The position numbers and the translations under genes were made by a program. Shown here piece after piece: positions 839 through 31,098 of a DNA stretch of 48,548 nucleotides. Source of the DNA: Chloroflexota bacterium (lineage in GTDB: Bacteria; Chloroflexota; Anaerolineae; Aggregatilineales; J027); contig RFGP01000077.1 of the NCBI GenBank assembly GCA_003697365.1, positions 1 through 48,548 of the forward strand, written 5' to 3'. The notes below the pieces were generated by a model. The model ran no database searches. It was not told the DNA's origin and saw only the letters and a list, made by a program, of their open reading frames with translations. The first letter of the stretch is position 1, and each line of letters starts with the position of its first letter.

Positions 839-3800
839 TTAAATGCGTTTAATAGCGAGCTTCAGCGTTTCCCCATCAAGTTCTAATGTCTCGATTCTGT
901 CGGCATCGTCATATAATGAGCTTTGCCATACTTCAGCGAGTGTTTCGCCCATAATGTAGTCTTTATGCACTTCTAGTGCTTTCTCAGCTTGGCCTTTTGC
1001 TTCATAAGAAAGTGCAATGCGATCACTGAGATCGTAATTGGCATCCTTACGCATATTTTGAATCGCTCGCACAATCTCACGTGCATAACCTTCTAGGATC
1101 AAATCTTCTGTTAGCTCTGTGGTCAGTGCTGCCATATAACCATGATCAGCAGCGACTGCGTAGCCTTCTTGCCCACTTTGGCTAACAATGACTTGTTCGG
1201 CTGAAAGAGAAAATGTCTTGCCATTTACTGATACTTCAATTGATTCGCCACTGAGTAAGGCTTCTCCCCATTGGCGTGCTTGTTCACCTTCAGCACTGAC
1301 GATTGCTTGCCGCACGGCGGGGAAATCGCCGCGCAATTCACGCCCTAAAGTGTCAATGGGCTTGAGCGAATAATTGACCATGCCCGCACTACTTGCTAGA
1401 TCAAGCACGCGCACTTGCTTGACGTTTAATTCATCGGCAATCATATCTGTTAGTTGCAGGATTTGCTCTGGGTCTTCATCAGAAGGCAGACCAAAACTCA
1501 CTTCTTTAAGTGGTTGACGAACTTTTAGCTTAGCATTGTTGCGTGCGGCGTGCCCTAAACTAACTACGCGCTTGACAACAGCCATTTGATGATTCAGTTT
1601 TGGATTAATCAGTGCTTCATCAAATTCTGGCCACATCGCGAGATGCACACTTCTGCTTTCATCGCCTTCTGTTGATAGGTTACGGTATATCGCTTCTGAC
1701 AAGAAAGGCATGGTTGGGGCCAATAATTTAGCAATCGTCAACAAACACTCATAAAGTGTCTGATAGGCCGCCAATTTATCTTGGCTATTATCGTTTTGCC
1801 AAAAGCGCCGCCGTGAACGACGAAGATACCAATTGCTTAAATTATCAACAAAACCTTCTATTGGTCGTGTTGCGCCTAGCACATCATAAGTTTCATAGGC
1901 TTGGGTTACATCACGTACAAGTGTATGTAACTCGCTAAGAATCCATTGATCGAGGAGATCGCGTTCAGCAACAGGAATTAAAGGCGTTTGAGGATCAAAT
2001 TGATCGACGTTGGCATACGATACGAAGAAGCTGTAAACATTCCACAAAGTCAAATAAAAGTTACGCAAAACTTCAGTGATGCCGGGAATGTCTTTGTTGC
2101 CTTTATTGTCATAACGCCAGCCAAAACGCTTTTGATCGCCCGGTTGGCTTGCTGTGAACATATACCAGCGCATAGCGTCTGCCCCATATTTTTCGATAAC
2201 TTCCCATGGGGAAACGGTGTTGCCTCGACTCTTCGACATTTTGCTGCCATCATCAGCCATAATATGACCTAGACAGATCACATTCTTATAAGCAACAGAG
2301 TCAAATACCATTGTTGCAATGGCATGTAGGCTATAGAACCATCCGCGCGTTTGATCCACAGCTTCACAAATATAGTCTGCGGGGAATTGTTCTTTGAAGA
2401 TTTCTTGATTATGTCGTGGGTATCCCCATTGAGCAACAGGCATCGCACCACTATCGAACCACACATCAATCACTTCTGGTACGCGGCGCATTGTTACGGT
2501 TTTACCGTTAACGGTTTCTTGCCAAGTGATCTCATCAACATAAGGGCGATGTAAATCTAGATCGCTAAGATCGCGGCCCACTTTTTGTGATAATTCTTCT
2601 ACACTGCCGATGCAAACAGCATAGTCAACTTCAGGATCATCAGCTACCCAAACTGGCAAAGGCGTTCCCCAATAACGCTCGCGTCCTAATGCCCAATCTT
2701 TAACATCGGCTAACCAGTTTCCGAAGCGTCCTTCTTTTACATGCTCAGGCACCCAGTTGATGGTTTGATTGAGTTCGACAAGTCGATCACGAAAATCTGT
2801 GGTGCGGATGAACCAAGTATCACGTGCAAGATACATCAATGGGGTTTTGTCGCGCCAATTATGAGGGTAATTGTGCTTATATTTGGTGAGATGGAAGACA
2901 AGCCCACGTTCACGTAAATCGCGTGCGATCACGTCATCCGCATCTTTAAACCACATACCCGCCACCAATGTAACTTCATCTTTAAACGTGCCATCAGAAT
3001 TTACAGTGACGATCACGGGTAAGTCATATTTTTGGGCGGAGGCCATGTCATCTACACCAAAGGCAGGTGCTGTATGAACAATCCCTGTACCATCTTCAAT
3101 GCTTACATAATCCGCAGCAATAATGCGATAGGCCTTGTCTTCATCTACTGGGAAGAAAGTATAAAGCGGTTCATAGCGTCGACCGACAAGGGCTTCACCC
3201 TTCATCTCAGCGACCACTTCATACCCACCATCTTCTTGAACAACTGGCCCAAGAACTTGTTCCACAAGGTTTTTGGCAAGATATAAATATTCTTCGGGGG
3301 CATCAGCTGACACTCGCCCTTTTAGTTTTACGTAATCAATATCGGCCCCTACTGCAAGTGCAACATTTGCGGGCGTTGTCCATGGGGTTGTTGTCCAACC
3401 AAGATAGTAGGTATTTTCTTCATCAACCGCTTTGAAGCGGATATAGATGCTTGGGTCTTCAATTTCTTCATAACCTAATGCAACCTCATGGCTAGAAAGT
3501 GCTGTTCCGGACGTAGGAGAATAGGGCACGACCTTATAGCCTTTATAGAGAACACCCTTATCCCACAGTTGGCGCAACAGCCACCACACGCTCTCAATAT
3601 AATCATTGGTCAATGTGGCATAAGCGTTTTCTAGATCAACCCAAAATGCGATGCGTTCAGTGAGTTCATTCCATTCTTTGATATAGGTGAAAACACTTTC
3701 ACGGCATTTAGCATTGAATTCTGCGATACCATAGCGTTCAATTTCGCTTTTTTGTTTGATGCCTAGTTGTTTTTCTACTTCAATTTCAACAGGCAGACCG

Positions 3801-4063
3801 TGAGTGTCCCAGCCGCCTTTGCGCAAGACGTAGTAGCCACGCATTGTGCGATAGCGCGGAAACATATCTTTAAACGAGCGTGCTAGAACGTGGTGACTGC
3901 CCGGCCGACCATTTGCTGTTGGGGGGCCTTCATAAAATACGTAGCGCGGCCCAGATTCCCTTTCGTGCATAGTACGTCGAAAAATATCATGTGCTTTCCA
4001 AAAAGAGAGGACTTCTTCCTCTAAGGCAGTAATATTGACATTCGGTGATACCGACTTGAACAT
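839..4063 (-). CDS. ileS: isoleucine--tRNA ligase, type 2 (IleRS2)
   Basis: YEGPPTANG followed by GSHH (HIGH-equivalent), GWDTHGLPVE, WTTTPWT editing motif, GTGIVHTAPAFG, DQTRGWFYSL, KMSKS; long type-2 C-terminus; RBS AAGGAGG. Confidence 0.97.
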   Translation of the reverse strand: MFKSVSPNVNITALEEEVLSFWKAHDIFRRTMHERESGPRYVFYEGPPTANGRPGSHHVLARSFKDMFPRYRTMRGYYVLRKGGWDTHGLPVEIEVEKQLGIKQKSEIERYGIAEFNAKCRESVFTYIKEWNELTERIAFWVDLENAYATLTNDYIESVWWLLRQLWDKGVLYKGYKVVPYSPTSGTALSSHEVALGYEEIEDPSIYIRFKAVDEENTYYLGWTTTPWTTPANVALAVGADIDYVKLKGRVSADAPEEYLYLAKNLVEQVLGPVVQEDGGYEVVAEMKGEALVGRRYEPLYTFFPVDEDKAYRIIAADYVSIEDGTGIVHTAPAFGVDDMASAQKYDLPVIVTVNSDGTFKDEVTLVAGMWFKDADDVIARDLRERGLVFHLTKYKHNYPHNWRDKTPLMYLARDTWFIRTTDFRDRLVELNQTINWVPEHVKEGRFGNWLADVKDWALGRERYWGTPLPVWVADDPEVDYAVCIGSVEELSQKVGRDLSDLDLHRPYVDEITWQETVNGKTVTMRRVPEVIDVWFDSGAMPVAQWGYPRHNQEIFKEQFPADYICEAVDQTRGWFYSLHAIATMVFDSVAYKNVICLGHIMADDGSKMSKSRGNTVSPWEVIEKYGADAMRWYMFTASQPGDQKRFGWRYDNKGNKDIPGITEVLRNFYLTLWNVYSFFVSYANVDQFDPQTPLIPVAERDLLDQWILSELHTLVRDVTQAYETYDVLGATRPIEGFVDNLSNWYLRRSRRRFWQNDNSQDKLAAYQTLYECLLTIAKLLAPTMPFLSEAIYRNLSTEGDESRSVHLAMWPEFDEALINPKLNHQMAVVKRVVSLGHAARNNAKLKVRQPLKEVSFGLPSDEDPEQILQLTDMIADELNVKQVRVLDLASSAGMVNYSLKPIDTLGRELRGDFPAVRQAIVSAEGEQARQWGEALLSGESIEVSVNGKTFSLSAEQVIVSQSGQEGYAVAADHGYMAALTTELTEDLILEGYAREIVRAIQNMRKDANYDLSDRIALSYEAKGQAEKALEVHKDYIMGETLAEVWQSSLYDDADRIETLELDGETLKLAIKRI

Positions 4064-4167
4064 AATCTCCTCCTTATTAAGTTAACCGTATATTTGATAG
4101 TTGGTAAAAATTAGCTTGTCCAACTGTCAAAATCGCTGCTCAAAACCTGTGTACTGGAAACATACAC

Positions 4168-4656
4168 CTAGTCATAAACGAGTATCCGAAACCGAGTAAA
4201 TGGCCCTTCAGGATAGTTGGTTGCAATATAAACTTCCCAACTATAACCTGTGACATCTTCATCTTTGGTGTAGCGGCACGAACCTAACGTTACAAAACTC
4301 TCTGTGGAATTTTGTGTGCCGTCAGGGTTACAAATGAAAGGTTGTGTTGTACAGCGTGCCCCATGTTCATAATAAAATGAGGCAATTTCGCACCCGCTTT
4401 TTTCAGTAGTGTAAAAGTAAGTTCGGCTTGCAGAGCCACTTTGCCCTTCTTCCTTTTCTAGTACGACATCATCTGGGATAGGGATTTCAGGATCACCGCC
4501 TAATACAATCTCAGAAAGCGGCCCAGCAATTTGTGTGAAGATATATGCAGTTATGATTAAGGCTAGAATGCCAAACGCTGCTATAACCCATAATGGTAAA
4601 AATGACGAACCTTGCGGTGCCTGTTCTGGTGAAGGTGAAGATTGCGTATTATCCAT
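4168..4656 (-). CDS. hypothetical single-pass membrane protein with Cys-containing extracytoplasmic domain
   Basis: TM segment FLPLWVIAAFGILALIITAYIF and four Cys. Start placed at MDNTQ (4656); the ORF track start is 4674. Confidence 0.75.
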   Translation of the reverse strand: MDNTQSSPSPEQAPQGSSFLPLWVIAAFGILALIITAYIFTQIAGPLSEIVLGGDPEIPIPDDVVLEKEEGQSGSASRTYFYTTEKSGCEIASFYYEHGARCTTQPFICNPDGTQNSTESFVTLGSCRYTKDEDVTGYSWEVYIATNYPEGPFTRFRILVYD

Positions 4657-4661
4657 GATTT

Positions 4662-5171
4662 TTATCCTTGCCACTGATCATTGGTGATGACAACAACTTC
4701 ACCTGTCAAAATACCATTTTCATCACGTATTGGCTTAATTTCTACTCGCGTGAATTGTGTGAACCCCAATAGTTCGTGTGATCGATCTTTTTGACAGACG
4801 TTAGTATGGAATTGTTCTGGGGTGGGCTCTGTTTGTTCGGACAAGCGAATGCAAGAATCCATCTGTTCAAGATAGAAAGCCTCAATATCCGCAACAAGCG
4901 AAGGACTCATACCAGCGAAAACCCCTTCATAGCGTTGTGTTCTTTGGGTGTCAGATATTTTCTCTTCACTAATGAGCTGTAAGCCCGGATAGTGGCGTAA
5001 GCGAATGGGCTGGCTTCGATCATTGCGCGCATCAATATATACGAATGCTGATATAAGCGTCACAACACCGATAAGGACAAGTAGGCCGAGTGTAATACGA
5101 ATGATCCAACTATCAAGACAGTTATAGCGCTCAATTTGTTCAACTGTGTTTGAAGTACGAACGTTACTCAT
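4662..5171 (-). CDS. hypothetical single-pass membrane protein
   Basis: TM segment IIRITLGLLVLIGVVTLISAFVYI; tightly packed with both neighbours. Confidence 0.75.
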   Translation of the reverse strand: MSNVRTSNTVEQIERYNCLDSWIIRITLGLLVLIGVVTLISAFVYIDARNDRSQPIRLRHYPGLQLISEEKISDTQRTQRYEGVFAGMSPSLVADIEAFYLEQMDSCIRLSEQTEPTPEQFHTNVCQKDRSHELLGFTQFTRVEIKPIRDENGILTGEVVVITNDQWQG

Positions 5172-5178
5172 AAAAAAT

Positions 5179-5961
5179 TTATACTTCCTTTTTTAATATT
5201 TCGCGCATTTTGACAACATCACTTGCAATACGTCGTCCATAGTCGCTGTTGGCATGACGACGCGCTTCTGTCTGCCAATAAGCAAGACCTGCAGCGTTTT
5301 TTTGCATGATGTTATAAGCGCCGAGCTGTTCTTCCTCTACTAAATTGTAGAGTAGATAGTTGATAAACAATGTTCGGTATTGTTCTAGGTTCAAAACACG
5401 AGCTGCGGATTGTGCTGTTCGGATAACGTCCTCTTCAGGGGCTTCTTGTAAGTGTAGGGCAAGCGCAATATCTGCTCGAATTGCCTTACGGCCGCCATTT
5501 TCTAATGCTTGTTGGAGCAACTCAATAGCTTTATCGTATTGACCTTGTACCATGCGGGTTCGCCCTAAGCCGAATAATGCTTGAACATGTTTAGGATCAT
5601 ACGAAAGTGCTTTTTCAAGATATGCAGCACTTTTTTCTAATTCTCCCATTTGCCGATAGGTATTTCCTAACAGCGCCAAAGCATCTGCAGAAATGTTTTC
5701 TTCGGGGATTGTCGATAGTAAATTCGCAGCAGCTTCAAAGTCGCCTTGTAAATAATATCGGCGAGCAGTTGTAATTGTTGAGGAATGTTGCCCCCAACCG
5801 AAAAGTATCCATAATTGCAGTGCCGCCATCAACACCCCTAATCCTATGACGATAGGCAGCATTTCTTCAGGGTCACGACCGCGTGTGATGAGAAAAATTG
5901 CGCCGCTAATAAGGGCGGTAACAATGAATGCTAAACGTAGGCGTGGGTCTTGTAAAATCAT
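5179..5961 (-). CDS. membrane-anchored TPR protein
   Basis: Two N-terminal TM segments; TPR patterns ALALLGNTYRQMGELEKSAAYLEKAL and ALFGLGRTRMVQGQYDKAIELLQQAL; ATGA overlap with the upstream gene. Confidence 0.85.
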   Translation of the reverse strand: MILQDPRLRLAFIVTALISGAIFLITRGRDPEEMLPIVIGLGVLMAALQLWILFGWGQHSSTITTARRYYLQGDFEAAANLLSTIPEENISADALALLGNTYRQMGELEKSAAYLEKALSYDPKHVQALFGLGRTRMVQGQYDKAIELLQQALENGGRKAIRADIALALHLQEAPEEDVIRTAQSAARVLNLEQYRTLFINYLLYNLVEEEQLGAYNIMQKNAAGLAYWQTEARRHANSDYGRRIASDVVKMREILKKEV

Positions 5962-6959
5962 TGTGCTGCCCCAAAGATTTTTTCGATAGAAATCTGATGA
6001 AATACAATGACCCGTTCTGCTAGATGAATATCTTCAGCGTATATGTGGCGCACCGTTTCCGCTTGTGAATCTTCAAGAATATTTTGCCATTCTTTTAGAC
6101 CGCGTTTTTGTTGTGCCACTTTTTTAAGGGTATTTTCGGCTTTTTCAGTTTGACCAAGTGCTGCATAGGCGCGTGCTTGCCATAAATAGCCTAACAATAA
6201 TAGGCGGCTCTCTCTTAAACCATGTGCAATGGCACGATCAATATAATCGATAACACTTTGATAGTTACCAAGTCGATCTTCGATTAGGGCTAAGTCATGT
6301 AATAATGCCGGGCTTGTTTGCGAACGTTCAAAAGCTAATAGGCTGTAATACCGTGCTTTTTCAAAATTCCCCATCTGCACATAAATAGCAGCTAAACCAC
6401 TATATCCACGCGGATCATTTTCATCTAGTGCGATCATTTTTTCATAGTCTTGAATTGCTGCTTGGGTTTGACCATCTAACTGAAATAAGCGCGCGCGGAA
6501 ATCTAGATGCTCAAGAACCTTTGGTTCAGCACGAATTAGTTCACTGATGGTATTGATTGCGGCTTGGTAATCTTGGTTGCGCATGTGCTTAATGGCTGTT
6601 TTGTATTCCATGATAGTTGGTTCACGGATGAAAAATTGGGCAGCTAATACCCATCCAAACGCGCCACCAAGCAGGAATGGCAACCAAGCGCTTGGTGCGA
6701 TCACTGCTAAAATGGCTAAGCCGAGCGCAGGTAAAATGCTAAAAAACAAACGGCGTTGACCATAAGGCCCTAATTTGCGCCCGATGATGATCGTCGCAGA
6801 TGCGAGAAACACGATGAATAGCAAGCTCTGGACTGTTATAACCCAGTCACCATCTGCTACAAATCCGAGCACAGCGCTGACAAGTCCTGTAAAAATCAAA
6901 GCAAGTATAAGGGCACGCACGTTGGCTGGCCCTAGCCATTGTTGAAAATCTCGTAACAT
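5958..6959 (-). CDS. multi-TM TPR protein
   Basis: Four hydrophobic N-terminal segments, then TPR repeats (GYSGLAAIYVQMGNFEKA, LLHDLALIEDRLGNYQSV). Confidence 0.85.
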   Translation of the reverse strand: MLRDFQQWLGPANVRALILALIFTGLVSAVLGFVADGDWVITVQSLLFIVFLASATIIIGRKLGPYGQRRLFFSILPALGLAILAVIAPSAWLPFLLGGAFGWVLAAQFFIREPTIMEYKTAIKHMRNQDYQAAINTISELIRAEPKVLEHLDFRARLFQLDGQTQAAIQDYEKMIALDENDPRGYSGLAAIYVQMGNFEKARYYSLLAFERSQTSPALLHDLALIEDRLGNYQSVIDYIDRAIAHGLRESRLLLLGYLWQARAYAALGQTEKAENTLKKVAQQKRGLKEWQNILEDSQAETVRHIYAEDIHLAERVIVFHQISIEKIFGAAQ

Positions 6960-6960
6960 A

Positions 6961-7440
6961 TCACTTCAACCGATACCAAAAATGATCGATAAATTCAGAG
7001 GCTCCCTTAGCTCGCCAAAATGCTTGTGCCATAGGGTGCAAATGCATAACCGCCACTTCTACTACTTTAATGTCTTGGGCAAGGAACCACTCTCGCATTG
7101 GGTTCAGCAGTGCCGTTCCTACGCCGCCAACATGAGCATGGCCATCAACACCCAGTTCGGCAATGTAGCCATATTTTTGTTGATAGTAGAATAATGGGCG
7201 TTCAAGAATAAGGCCGATCATAAATCCAATAATACGACTGTCTTTTTCTGCTATTAAGACGTGTGCAGCGGGGTCATCTAACCATGTATGAACTTGTTGC
7301 CGCCATAATTGCGGTGCATGAGATGTTATCCGCAAGCGCGGGTCCATCGTGGTTGCGATTTCATCCATAATGTCCGCCCACAATCCCTCTAACTGTTCTA
7401 GATCAGGGTGCATCGCGGGCCGTACTTGAAACGATGCCAT
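6961..7440 (-). CDS. GNAT family acetyltransferase
   Basis: IAELGVD..HVGGVGTALL motif A and AQAFWRAKG. ATG at 7440 follows GAAGGAG; the ORF-track start at 7470 lies inside the T-box terminator. Confidence 0.85.
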   Translation of the reverse strand: MASFQVRPAMHPDLEQLEGLWADIMDEIATTMDPRLRITSHAPQLWRQQVHTWLDDPAAHVLIAEKDSRIIGFMIGLILERPLFYYQQKYGYIAELGVDGHAHVGGVGTALLNPMREWFLAQDIKVVEVAVMHLHPMAQAFWRAKGASEFIDHFWYRLK

Positions 7441-7468
7441 ATCGTTTATTTGCTCCTTCGTTACCATC

Positions 7469-7503
7469 AAAAAAGCTCCCGTCCTTCAAGGGACGAGAGC
7501 TTT
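7469..7503 (-). terminator. T-box terminator hairpin
   Basis: AAAGCTCTCGTCC-cttgaa-GGACGGGAGCTTTTTT; mutually exclusive with the antiterminator AGGG-TGGAACC-GCGAGA...TCTCGT-CCCT. Confidence 0.9.
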
Positions 7504-7728
7504 CGGTCTCGCGGTTCCACCCTAGATTCTTCGTACCTAGTAGAAGTGTACGAAGCACTCAGGTCACTAAGATAACGGTCTAGTCGCCGCCGACGCTTAC
7601 TAGCGCAACAACGCGCGTTCGGGTCGGAACTCCGAAAGGATAACCAACAACCGTACTATGCTAGGCTTACACCGTCCCTAGCTCGCTGAAATAGCCATTA
7701 GGTTTGTTGGTCGTGTTTTCATCATCGT
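7469..7728 (-). promoter_or_regulatory. T-box riboswitch (transcriptional attenuator), probable Ile (AUC) specifier
   Basis: On the minus strand: Stem I with CAGCGAG AG-bulge and a GGTG-containing apical loop, ATC at 7641-7639, Stem II with GAA/AGTA, GACCGTTAT, Stem III, T-box AGGGTGGAACCGCG (7523-7510), and an overlapping terminator with a U6 tail. Confidence 0.92.
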
Positions 7729-7751
7729 TTTTTTGGTTCTATATGGTTTTT

Positions 7752-7780
7752 ATTCTAAATGAGAGATGTCTTACAGGCAA
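7752..7780 (-). promoter_or_regulatory. sigma70-type promoter for the T-box leader
   Basis: TTGCCT-17 nt-TAGAAT on the minus strand, about 25 nt upstream of Stem I. Confidence 0.7.
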
Positions 7781-7930: not shown

Positions 7931-10084
7931 ATGTCGTTATTGAAATACGTTGTGTGTCGTAATTGTGGGCATAAAATGCCCCCTGATCCACTAACTAAAA
8001 AATGTGATCAATGTGAAGGGCAATGGCTCATTGCAGAGTATGATCTCGAACAGGCAAAAGAAATTTGGCGTTCTGATGCTTTTCAAGGGCGGGAACTATC
8101 CTTATGGCGTTATATGGAGTTATTGCCTACTTCAGACCCGGGATTTGATGTTTCTATGGGGGAAGGCTGGACTCCTCTAGTGAAAGCGGCTCGTCTGCAG
8201 CAAGAATTAGGGTTGGCGAATTTATGGATCAAAGATGAGCGTCAAAGCCCAACGGGATGTTTCAAGGATCGGCAAGCTGTTTTGAATATTGCTCACTATA
8301 AAAAAGTGGGTATTGAAGAGGTGGTGTTGGCTTCAACAGGAAACAAAGCGACAGCTTTTGCGGCATATTGCGCGCGTGCCAATATTCGCGCATGGGTTTT
8401 TTTAACCAGTGCTGTGCCTAACGAAAAATTAAGAGAATTAGGACTTTATGGGGCTGAGGTTGTCAAAATCGCTGGCACCTATGATCAAGCCAAGCAAGTT
8501 GCTAAAGATTTTGCGGCACGTCGTAATTTATTACTAGAGGGAGGAGCCAAAAGCATCTTAAGCCAAGATGGCATGAAAACCCTTGCTTTTGAAATTGCCG
8601 AACAGCTAGCACGTTATGCACCTGTTGAAGATGGAAAATGGCGTGCTCCTGACTGGTACATTCAAGCGGTAAGTGGTGGCATCGGCCCAATAGCAGTTTG
8701 GCAAGGGTTTAAGGAACTGTTGGCTATGGGGCTGATAGATCGCTTGCCCAAGATTGGCGTAGTGCAAGTTGAGGGATGTGCACCAATGGTAACGGCGTGG
8801 CAACAAGACCTAGAAGAAGCTGAGCCTGTGGTGCCACGTACAAGAATTGCGGTATTGGCAACAGGTGACCCCGGACAAGGCTATAAAATATTGCGTCAAG
8901 CCTGCAAGGAAGGTGGCGGTACGATGATCTCAGTGAGTGATGGCGAAACATTTCGCGCGATGCGTCGCCTAGCACGGGTAGAAGGATATAGCATGGAACC
9001 CGCCACTGCGGTTGCTTTTGCTGGGCTTGAAAAATTGGTGCAAGAGGGGCTTATCCAAACTGATGACTATGTAGTAGTTAATTGTTCTGGACATACTTTC
9101 CCCGCAGAAAAACATGTTCTAGAGGATCAGTATGTTCTTGACTTGCAGTTAGGACAATTAGACGAGGATACGCAAGCAGTTTCGCACCGCAGTATTGAAG
9201 AAGGCATTGAGTCTGCTCTTGCTACGCTTGATGAACAAGTTACTACTGTTGTGATTATTGATGATAACCCTCAAGATAGCCGACTTATTCGGCGTTTGCT
9301 TCAAACCTATAAGAATTATCGTGTTTTTGAGGCGAATGACCCACGCGATGGCTTCGAGTTGATTAAGCAGCGTAAACCCGATCTTATTGTGACGGATTTA
9401 ACTATGCCTGATATGGATGGCTTTGAGCTGATCGATGCTTTGAAGCAAGACCCTAATGTTCGTGATATTCCGGTTGTTGTCATCTCTGCAAAAACGTTGA
9501 CCCCAGAAGAGCGCCAAAAACTGGAAAGCCAAACAGAATCACTTTGGCAAAAGGGCAGTTTTAATACACGAGAACTGGTCGATCATGTCGTGAAAACTTT
9601 GGGCGTAGAAAATGGGGAAGAAATACCTTCTGAAGATACCCCCGTCACAACTACAGTTGGGAAGATTGCTAGTGGAGTGCAACAGGTTATTGAGCAAATA
9701 ACCCCTTCTACAGTTATGGTAATCGATGATAACCGACGCGATGCGCGTCTTGTGCGGCGTATTCTTGAGGCAACGAAGCGCTATCATGTCATTGAAGCCT
9801 ATACAGCTGAGGAGGGCCGTCAGCTAATTGACGAACATCACCCACGTTTAGTAGTCTTGGATATACTATTACCTGATTTAAATGGGCTCGATTTCTTAGC
9901 TCAATTACGCCAAAACGAGAAACATAAGCAATTGCCTGTCGTAATTTTAACGGCTAAGGAATTAACAGCTGACGAACGAGAGCGCTTTGAAAAACTGAAT
10001 TGTTCAATTTGGTATAAGCTCCAATTAGATCGTCAACAATTGGTGGAGCATGTCGACAAGATTATAAATATGCTTAAGTCATAA
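7931..10084 (+). CDS. threonine-synthase-like PLP enzyme (fold type II) fused to two C-terminal receiver domains
   Basis: N-terminal CxxC...CxxC, SLWRYMELLP, SMGEGWTPL, PTGCFKDR (PLP Lys), ASTGN, MEPATAVAFAGL. REC1: IIDD, VTDLTMPDMDG, ISAK. REC2: VIDD, VLDILLPDLNG, LTAK. Confidence 0.9.
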   Translation: MSLLKYVVCRNCGHKMPPDPLTKKCDQCEGQWLIAEYDLEQAKEIWRSDAFQGRELSLWRYMELLPTSDPGFDVSMGEGWTPLVKAARLQQELGLANLWIKDERQSPTGCFKDRQAVLNIAHYKKVGIEEVVLASTGNKATAFAAYCARANIRAWVFLTSAVPNEKLRELGLYGAEVVKIAGTYDQAKQVAKDFAARRNLLLEGGAKSILSQDGMKTLAFEIAEQLARYAPVEDGKWRAPDWYIQAVSGGIGPIAVWQGFKELLAMGLIDRLPKIGVVQVEGCAPMVTAWQQDLEEAEPVVPRTRIAVLATGDPGQGYKILRQACKEGGGTMISVSDGETFRAMRRLARVEGYSMEPATAVAFAGLEKLVQEGLIQTDDYVVVNCSGHTFPAEKHVLEDQYVLDLQLGQLDEDTQAVSHRSIEEGIESALATLDEQVTTVVIIDDNPQDSRLIRRLLQTYKNYRVFEANDPRDGFELIKQRKPDLIVTDLTMPDMDGFELIDALKQDPNVRDIPVVVISAKTLTPEERQKLESQTESLWQKGSFNTRELVDHVVKTLGVENGEEIPSEDTPVTTTVGKIASGVQQVIEQITPSTVMVIDDNRRDARLVRRILEATKRYHVIEAYTAEEGRQLIDEHHPRLVVLDILLPDLNGLDFLAQLRQNEKHKQLPVVILTAKELTADERERFEKLNCSIWYKLQLDRQQLVEHVDKIINMLKS

Positions 10085-31024: not shown

Positions 31025-31098
31025 GGGGTGTTAGCTCAGTTGGCCAGAGCGCTTCGTTGACATCGAAGAGGTCAGAGGTTCAAGTCCTCTACATCCCA
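31025..31098 (+). tRNA. tRNA-Val(GAC), CCA not encoded
   Basis: Acceptor stem GGGGTGT/ACATCCC, D-arm GCTCAGTTGGCCAGAGC, anticodon arm CTTCG-TTGACAT-CGAAG, T-arm AGAGG-TTCAAGT-CCTCT, discriminator A followed by CAT. Confidence 0.96.

Follow-up and report, generated by a model that had tools for sequence, protein, structure and literature searches.

In Bacillota such as Bacillus subtilis and Staphylococcus aureus, the isoleucyl-tRNA synthetase (IleRS) gene ileS follows a T-box leader made up of a Stem I, a specifier loop, a T-box bulge and a competing antiterminator and terminator. The specifier of these leaders is AUC, the base after a specifier is usually a purine, and the leader abuts the synthetase gene. 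The S. aureus ileS gene is placed within the T-box family in the title of a paper referenced in PMC2494555. Here we describe an Ile T-box in a bacterium of the phylum Chloroflexota, located on a 48,548-nucleotide (nt) stretch of contig RFGP01000077.1 (GCA_003697365.1), the whole of which we call the window, at the head of a minus-strand operon in which ileS is the sixth and last gene. The leader is alike to its Bacillota counterparts in all the parts just listed, in its Ile specifier and in its ileS target, and differs from them in the 3.4 kb and five unrelated genes that separate it from ileS, in a C rather than the usual purine after the specifier, in its Chloroflexota host and in the type-2 IleRS that it precedes. 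The mechanism of the switch is textbook, and what is unusual is its location and the genes carried along with it. We consider it likely that one promoter and one T-box set the transcription of the whole operon in response to tRNA-Ile charging, with the five front genes as co-regulated passengers or partners. This arrangement is inherited across an order of Chloroflexota and is not a local accident.

Ile-specific T-boxes that precede ileS likewise occur outside Bacillota, in Actinobacteria, where they act on translation; according to PMC1262725, their hairpins sequester the Shine-Dalgarno box and take the place of terminators. In contrast, the window leader ends in a terminator and U run, is matched by the Rfam model over its full length and does not adjoin the ileS ribosome-binding site. 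T-box operons in which the synthetase gene is not the first have, as here, a T-box at the head and the aminoacyl-tRNA synthetase gene downstream, and the same genome offers an example in valS, which comes second after a methyltransferase gene. Compared with such operons, the synthetase of the present one stands in sixth place, and the five genes before it are without an evident tie to the amino acid. A search confined to one library of full texts returned no paper on a T-box before a GNAT/TPR ileS operon, or on an ileS leader with an Ile codon in Chloroflexota.

The leader and its immediate surroundings consist of the following parts, given in window coordinates.

7931-10084, plus strand: divergent upstream gene encoding 717 amino acids, with a pyridoxal phosphate (PLP)-dependent enzyme domain (PALP) and two response-regulator receiver domains
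7780-7752, minus strand: promoter-like pair TTGCCT-17-TAGAAT with 9/12 matches in a consensus scan, its end about 18 nt ahead of the T-box match
7486-7734, minus strand: full-length T-box leader of the transcription-attenuating type (Rfam RF00230, model positions 1-219)
7641-7639, minus strand: specifier codon AUC (Ile), read from the sequence, with C as the next base and the lower helix of Stem I behind it
7516-7519, minus strand: T-box bulge UGGA, read from the sequence, which would pair with the tRNA 3' end and whose last base would face the discriminator
7504-7469, minus strand: intrinsic terminator, a 14-pair hairpin with a U run, found by folding against shuffles

A preliminary description of this locus, made from the letters alone, had claimed a complete T-box with an AUC specifier, and both claims were borne out. 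A scan with the Rfam T-box model matched RF00230 over its full length with 93.0 bits (E 3.6e-19). On the 3' side of the specifier loop stands UUAUCC, followed by the lower helix UUUC, so that AUC is separated from the helix by a single base, C. ATC is invariant at the specifier in 14/14 aligned leaders, all of which stand before GNAT homologues and vary in the neighbouring bases, and it occupies the aligned position in 33/33 leaders from five families of the order. The terminator hairpin (7504-7471) has 14 pairs and a folding energy of -22.7 kcal/mol (z -5.25, with 0/200 shuffles as good), and the U run behind it extends to 7469. On its 5' side the hairpin overlaps the 3' arm of the antiterminator, the helix of which is visible in the RF00230 alignment of the window leader. 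Since the terminator uses the very strand that closes the antiterminator, CUCUCGUCCC, the leader belongs to the transcription-attenuating kind. The locus therefore combines a covariance match at the curated score, a specifier that fits ileS and an antiterminator and terminator that exclude each other. Metagenome contigs of runs X1 and X2 carry the same letters throughout the leader and span the whole stretch without joints.

A promoter had also been placed before the T-box. The pair TTGCCT-17-TAGAAT is indeed present there; promoter-like sites in the region number 14 against a shuffle mean of 14.3, so that the position of this pair is all that supports it. The upstream gene is divergent, and the transcription unit therefore begins in the intergenic region before the T-box.

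We propose that a minus-strand unit of about 7 kb is transcribed from a promoter near 7750-7780 and that the first 250 nt of the RNA fold into a canonical T-box, the AUC specifier of which would read the anticodon of tRNA-Ile(GAU). Uncharged tRNA-Ile would stabilise the antiterminator and allow RNA polymerase to run on, and with charged tRNA-Ile the 14-pair terminator at 7504-7469 would be free to fold. Polymerase that reads through could then proceed into the genes for GNAT, TPR1, TPR2, M1 and M2 and lastly into ileS, which encodes the genome's only isoleucyl-tRNA synthetase and is presumably the reason why the switch has been retained. T-box control would extend to the five front genes because they are located in the same operon as ileS. 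Cotranscription across the gap before ileS, the response to tRNA-Ile and the standing of the front genes as passengers not related to isoleucine are what we infer from this anatomy.

The operon reads as follows, in the direction of transcription.

6961-7440, minus strand: GNAT acetyltransferase of 159 amino acids (Pfam Acetyltransf_1, PF00583), with ATG at 7440 and AAGGAG at 7456-7451
5958-6959, minus strand: TPR1, 333 amino acids, N-terminal hydrophobic segments followed by TPR repeats
5179-5961, minus strand: TPR2, 260 amino acids, two N-terminal hydrophobic segments followed by TPR repeats
4662-5171, minus strand: M1, 169 amino acids, one hydrophobic segment, no known family
4168-4656, minus strand: M2, roughly 165 amino acids, one hydrophobic segment and four Cys, likely start ATG 4656, no known family
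4064-4167, minus strand: gap before ileS, with TTGACA at 4130-4125 and a short frame from ATG 4163 to TGA 4140 in a 5-pair hairpin
839-4063, minus strand: ileS, 1074 amino acids, with tRNA-synt_1, Anticodon_1 and a C-terminal DUF5915 (TIGR00392, 951 bits)
798-829, strand not assigned: 13-pair hairpin, the likely operon end, between the convergent ileS and rpe genes, with a T-rich tail on the plus-strand side

The gene order and common orientation given in the preliminary description, with spacings below 10 nt until a 104-nt gap, were confirmed on the sequence. GNAT, the start of which was fixed by alignment with relatives, is followed by TPR1 after 1 nt; TPR1 and TPR2 overlap by 4 nt; and 7 nt separate TPR2 from M1. 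M1 and M2 are 5 nt apart if M2 starts at ATG 4656 and overlap by 13 nt if it starts at GTG 4674. The gap between M2 and ileS measures 104 nt, and 3,422 nt lie between the end of the T-box and the start of ileS. In the synthetase, DUF5915 spans residues 873-1073 and places the enzyme in type 2, as we take this domain to be the type-2 IleRS C-terminal domain. The best of the IleRS exception models, MupA and MupB, scored far below their cut-offs, and we make no claim of resistance.

The genome contains a single ileS and nine T-box matches. The first or second gene downstream of the other eight is valS, trpE, aspS, thrS, pheS, trpD (in trpD-trpC), leuS or serS, so that none of these T-boxes serves ileS; conversely, with only one ileS in the genome, the Ile leader has no other synthetase gene to serve.

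Several observations weigh against this reading of the operon. The T-box score lies exactly at the Rfam gathering score of 93. The UGGA bulge, set against the A73 discriminator of tRNA-Ile from same-genus genomes, would give an A-A mismatch at the discriminator pair, and there is no tRNA-Ile gene among the 40 tRNA genes assembled in the window's genome. TTGACA (4130-4125) is present in the gap before ileS, as is a small hairpin of 5 pairs with four U behind it, and the promoter scan covered the sigma-70-type consensus only, by which other promoters would be missed. A search for RNA runs containing the stretch returned none, the five runs found, from two studies, all being hot-spring metagenome DNA contigs. 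Finally, many relatives retain the cluster and ileS without any T-box, which indicates that the cluster does not need the switch.

The bulge and the score also bear on the idea that this genome carries a weakened or decaying switch, in which case poor antitermination or a constitutive leak would leave the expression of the operon roughly fixed. The bulge of relatives' leaders is UGGU in 19/21 cases, compared with UGGA in the window, and a tRNA-Ile(GAU) with discriminator A73, found in the rRNA spacers of two same-genus genomes, fits the UGGU of relatives and not the UGGA of the window. Consistent with decay are also the T-box score at its threshold, the size of the assembly (3.1 Mb in 220 contigs with 43% G+C, compared with 3.8-4.9 Mb for other genomes of the genus) and the decayed appearance, by eye, of a second leader directly before ileS that is discussed below. 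However, the parts of the T-box other than the bulge are intact, including the specifier, the distal loop motifs, the antiterminator and the strong terminator, and if the switch were dead, a terminator of this kind would silence the only ileS of the cell. Two other leaders of the order (loci L093 and L098) also carry A or C at the last position of the bulge, and A73 comes from the tRNA-Ile of two other genomes of the genus. We regard a decaying switch as quite improbable, and a working T-box that would govern the whole operon as the likelier reading.

For such an operon, transcription has to cross the interior of the cluster. The statement that no terminator lies in between holds at the consensus level only: four weak terminator-like sites with stems of 5-6 pairs are present on the minus strand within coding sequence (6653-6637, 6205-6189, 4438-4424 and 4022-4006), and the total for the region, 9 against a shuffle mean of 6.6 (standard deviation 2.7), is near chance. 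The folding of the gap is not notable (z -1.14). As to an internal ileS promoter, which had been raised as a caveat and which the window may contain, the TTGACA hexamer exists, but the consensus scan found no promoter-like pair of at least 9/12 in the 104-nt gap, and two relatives weaken the proposal further. Both have a T-box before GNAT, and only 1 nt in G008 and 33 nt in G010 separate ileS from the gene preceding it, which leaves no room for a separate ileS promoter outside coding sequence.

The same gap is central to a different explanation, according to which the T-box mainly serves the front genes, a module with a role in isoleucine or aminoacyl-tRNA metabolism, and ileS depends largely on an internal promoter or leader of its own. 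The space before ileS, 104 nt in the window and 108-214 nt in same-genus relatives and those of genus g5, agrees with this explanation, as does a conserved short frame with an AUU codon and a hairpin that could control ileS separately in most relatives. It is at odds with the almost missing gap of G008 and G010 and with two same-genus relatives (G005 and G001) in which the Shine-Dalgarno sequence of this pre-ileS leader stands a few bases past the M2 stop codon. In same-genus relatives the M2 stop runs directly into the conserved leader with no free space for a promoter, so that the leader would lie within the long transcript unless a promoter is present inside M2.

Gene order in relatives bears on both the origin of the arrangement and the role of the front genes. 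The relatives are Chloroflexota, mostly Anaerolineae, Aggregatilineales or Aggregatilineaceae; the synteny set comprised 40 of them, and a GNAT homologue occurs in 32/41 genomes including the window's own. Around GNAT, ileS lies downstream on the same strand in 17/20 of the relatives' loci, most of which have the full order GNAT-TPR1-TPR2-M1-M2-ileS; two of the remaining three end at a contig edge, and one genome (G025) has ileS on another contig. Because the gathering score missed Ile T-boxes in 15 relatives' loci (68-95 bits), E-value searches and an nhmmer profile were used, and a T-box precedes GNAT in 13/19 loci (E <= 0.001). The six-gene order with a T-box is shared by 4 genomes of the genus and by at least 8 of the family. 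Variants were collected from the whole-genome T-box lists of 20 further genomes and the gene maps of 18 further stretches, and comprise the following arrangements.

Family f2: T-box, GNAT, TPR1, M1, M2, ileS
Genus g2: T-box, TPR1, TPR2, ileS, without GNAT
Family f4 (G021, G033, G039): T-box, AlaX-like editing protein, two unknown proteins, ileS
Family f5 (G022, G028, G040): T-box immediately before a divergent IleRS of 1133-1151 amino acids, about 34% identical, with no accessory genes
Families f6 and f7, part of f8, and genus g3: cluster with ileS, no T-box nearby

A wider survey used a TPR1 alignment of seven rows, which matched 216 places in contigs from one genome per species. Among the best 80 of these 216, ileS lies downstream on the same strand in 61; of the other 19 loci, 15 have less than 4.5 kb of contig left and 4 have room but no ileS. 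An nhmmer profile of 14 leaders located a T-box in 20/80 of the TPR1 loci, always at the head of the cluster, 18 times before a single GNAT and twice before TPR1. The T-box-less loci with enough upstream sequence have two tandem GNATs (36 loci), one GNAT (5) or none (6). Their commonest pattern is that of locus L088, with the order GNAT, GNAT, AlaX-like, TPR1, TPR, TPR2, M1-like, M2-like, ileS. In all of these comparisons the Ile T-box, where present, stands at the head of the cluster, and ileS is the last gene of the conserved cluster.

This distribution makes a recent insertion of five foreign genes between ileS and its leader in this lineage extremely unlikely. The preliminary description had offered such an insertion as one of two explanations, and a synteny check in relatives, which it had suggested, revealed the T-box at the cluster head in general and directly against ileS in family f5. 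An ancestral pair of leader and ileS is thus conceivable, although f5 has an IleRS that shares only about 34% identity with that of the window. The shared six-gene order in the genus and family, its variants beyond and the wide occurrence of the T-box-less cluster argue against insertion as a recent, local event. In addition, no repeats or mobile-element genes were seen, and the contigs are without joints. The other explanation, that an acetyltransferase/TPR membrane module is induced by uncharged tRNA-Ile, agrees with the anatomy, as GNAT would be transcribed first; any functional tie of the module to isoleucine is hypothetical.

A tree of IleS proteins leads to the same conclusion. It was built with FastTree from 70 unique rows, which remained of 89 after 6 partial and 13 duplicate sequences had been dropped, with the divergent f5 sequences as outgroup. 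T-boxes occur in 4/5 deep ingroup clades and in the outgroup, and one clade of 34 rows is without them; at least 5 changes between presence and absence are forced by well-supported branches. Gains and losses of the T-box are indistinguishable because the root of the tree is insecure, but its spread over the tree rules out a recent, local origin of the arrangement. An ancient insertion and an ancient fusion of operons cannot be told apart without a rooted species tree.

The retention of an Ile T-box before GNAT over long evolutionary distances is, in turn, a point in favour of the explanation that the T-box mainly serves the front genes. So are the AlaX-like aminoacyl-tRNA editing gene inside the cluster of T-box-less relatives and, as a lead only, the NCBIfam model NF040702, which describes an IleRS with a GNAT domain. 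On the other side, the T-box also heads versions of the operon without GNAT (G006 and G011) and stands directly before ileS in the three f5 genomes, and the GNAT protein is similar only to generic small-molecule acetyltransferases. Taken with the spacing before ileS described above, this leads us to consider service to the front genes as the main purpose of the T-box unlikely, and to retain as likely the reading in which the switch is kept for ileS and would control the whole operon.

The short-frame leader before ileS of relatives deserves description in its own right. In most relatives, whether a T-box is present or not, an element located about 90 to 160 nt upstream of ileS has GGAGGUG followed after 3-5 nt by a GUG or AUG start codon. 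The start codon sits in the 5' arm of a G+C-rich hairpin, and codons for (S/P)-R-x-I follow directly after the hairpin, the AUU being located two codons past it. The predicted peptides are 16-27 residues long in most loci, for example MAVGELLTPRVIVGLLRIR. A scan for the Shine-Dalgarno sequence, start codon and R-x-I found the frame in 46/75 unique loci, and the Ile codon is ATT in 45/46 of them despite their G+C-rich genomes, while the Arg codon is variable. Within the hairpin, 85.5% of cells are paired compared with 26-50% in slid alignments, and there are 22 double changes compared with 3-10, which supports covariation. A second helix joins the 8-13 nt that follow AUU to a segment whose end lies 10-28 nt upstream of the ileS start, at or beside its Shine-Dalgarno sequence; individually it reaches p < 0.05 in 9/41 leaders, with consistent positions and changing sequences. 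Examples of the leader in relatives are given below.

L088:11736-11855: pre-ileS leader
L141:11384-11530: pre-ileS leader
L031:4274-4397: pre-ileS leader

A covariance model of this leader (R1), built from 23 pre-ileS leaders, gave 37 matches in 84 sources (1.05 Mb), all of them just before ileS. Rfam had no match to the leader of locus L088 (11640-11870) at E <= 10 and none at the gathering score in 15 loci. In the window R1 found no match; the model also misses same-genus forms, and its silence on the window is therefore weak by itself. RNAalifold on the M2-ileS gap of 8 genomes recovered the base of the hairpin only, and the window could not be aligned to the hairpin. Of this leader, the gap of the window contains only AGGUG and an AUG within a hairpin of 5 pairs, after which codons for Arg and Phe lead to a stop codon (4163-4140); by eye, this has the appearance of a decayed version of the short-frame leader of relatives.

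Leader peptides of the pheST type occur before aminoacyl-tRNA synthetase genes, as mentioned in PMC1262725. The element of relatives resembles pheST attenuation and control of the ermC type in its short frame, which is predicted to be strongly initiated and has one conserved sensor-like codon, AUU, and in a helix that joins the 3' part of the frame to the ileS ribosome-binding region. Control of the ermC type is translational attenuation. The element differs from both systems in that its Ile codon stands alone and not in a run of codons, in that the frame set by the predicted start does not include AUU in genus g5, which would favour a role at the RNA level, and in that it is absent or decayed in the window. 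The layout of frame and helices suggests that pausing of a ribosome at AUU would prevent the second helix from closing, and hence that the translation of ileS may depend on isoleucine in these relatives. The pre-ileS leader with its nearly invariant AUU is a candidate for a new regulatory RNA that would act on an essential synthetase. It may be a more novel object than the layout of the T-box operon, and it does not look functional in the window.

If both elements act in the same operon, the supply of Ile-tRNA could be sensed twice, with the T-box at the head gating transcription of the module and ileS, and the AUU leader gating translation of ileS. We put this forward tentatively, as a rather unlikely possibility. 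Were it true, the T-box might be kept partly for the front genes, so that GNAT, the TPR proteins, M1 and M2 would constitute a function controlled by tRNA-Ile, and the window would represent a natural variant in which the second sensor has been lost and the T-box acts alone.

The operon also has consequences for how T-boxes are annotated. T-box targets are usually assigned from the gene just downstream; TBDB, for instance, assigns them from features within 500 nt of the T-box end (10.1101/2020.06.17.157016). This rule would file the T-box of the window under an acetyltransferase and miss ileS, and would likewise file the valS T-box of the same genome under a methyltransferase. Conservation across the order means that a T-box at the head of an operon can be maintained far from ileS; a riboswitch can thus be kept several kb from the gene for which it makes sense, and unrelated membrane and acetyltransferase genes would thereby come under the control of amino-acid charging. 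The clusters with and without a T-box, with and without a pre-ileS leader and with different passenger genes form a natural comparison set.

The valS locus just mentioned (G000 contig C219, locus L148) has a 270-amino-acid S-adenosylmethionine (SAM)-dependent methyltransferase between leader and valS; its open reading frames lie on the minus strand at 5161-5973 and 2534-5152, with the T-box at the high end. Two loci of genus g3, from the same family as the window (L041 and L042), have the six-gene order of the window with no T-box within 1.5 kb, and ileS is spaced -8 and 8 nt from the preceding gene; they provide a natural T-box-less control. In family f5 (L059:503-3958, L060:591-3992 and L061), the match of the divergent synthetase to the IleRS model begins near residue 190.

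GNAT is an ordinary member of its fold that resembles only generic small-molecule acetyltransferases. The PF00583 match scores 42 bits against a cut-off of 20.7, and the structural model has a predicted local distance difference test (pLDDT) score of 88.7. Its nearest solved chains, among hundreds of GNAT hits, are BH1408 of Bacillus halodurans (4e0a, Foldseek TM 0.80) and the metagenomic aminoglycoside acetyltransferase meta-AAC0020. NCBIfam gave weak, mixed hits only, and neither these nor the PDB profile search, the AlphaFold model and Foldseek pointed to a substrate. TacT, AtaT and ItaT are GNAT toxins that acetylate aminoacyl-tRNA. We considered such a toxin for the GNAT of the operon and rejected it, as no chain of this kind is among the 18 PDB profile hits (E <= 0.01) or the Foldseek hits listed; a toxin-antitoxin pair was set aside because the next gene encodes a membrane TPR protein.

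Membrane segments of the remaining front proteins were read by eye from the translations. Many TPR families of Pfam match both TPR1 and TPR2, and the nearest clusters of TPR1 in the protein Atlas consist exclusively of Chloroflexota TPR proteins. M1 and M2 match no family in Pfam or NCBIfam, and homologues of both occupy equivalent positions in relatives.

Two leads might tie the module to aminoacyl-tRNA, namely NF040702 and the AlaX-like gene of the T-box-less cluster. The latter, with a tRNA_SAD domain and an AlaRS editing region, is encoded at L088:7093-7971. In family f4 an AlaX-like gene is the first after the Ile T-box (L052:487-1206 and L053:560-1282), and its product scores 283.6 bits against the AlaXM cut-off of 300. 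The cluster of the window has no AlaX-like gene, and the hit elsewhere in its genome, on contig C122, is merely 29% identical.

Two further features of the window stand apart from the operon. The product of the divergent gene at 7931-10084 (plus strand) joins PALP to two receiver domains, an unusual fusion. The sole further Rfam match across the 48.5 kb is a tRNA at 31025-31098 (plus strand, 68.4 bits), the anticodon of which reads GAC (Val) by eye from the alignment.

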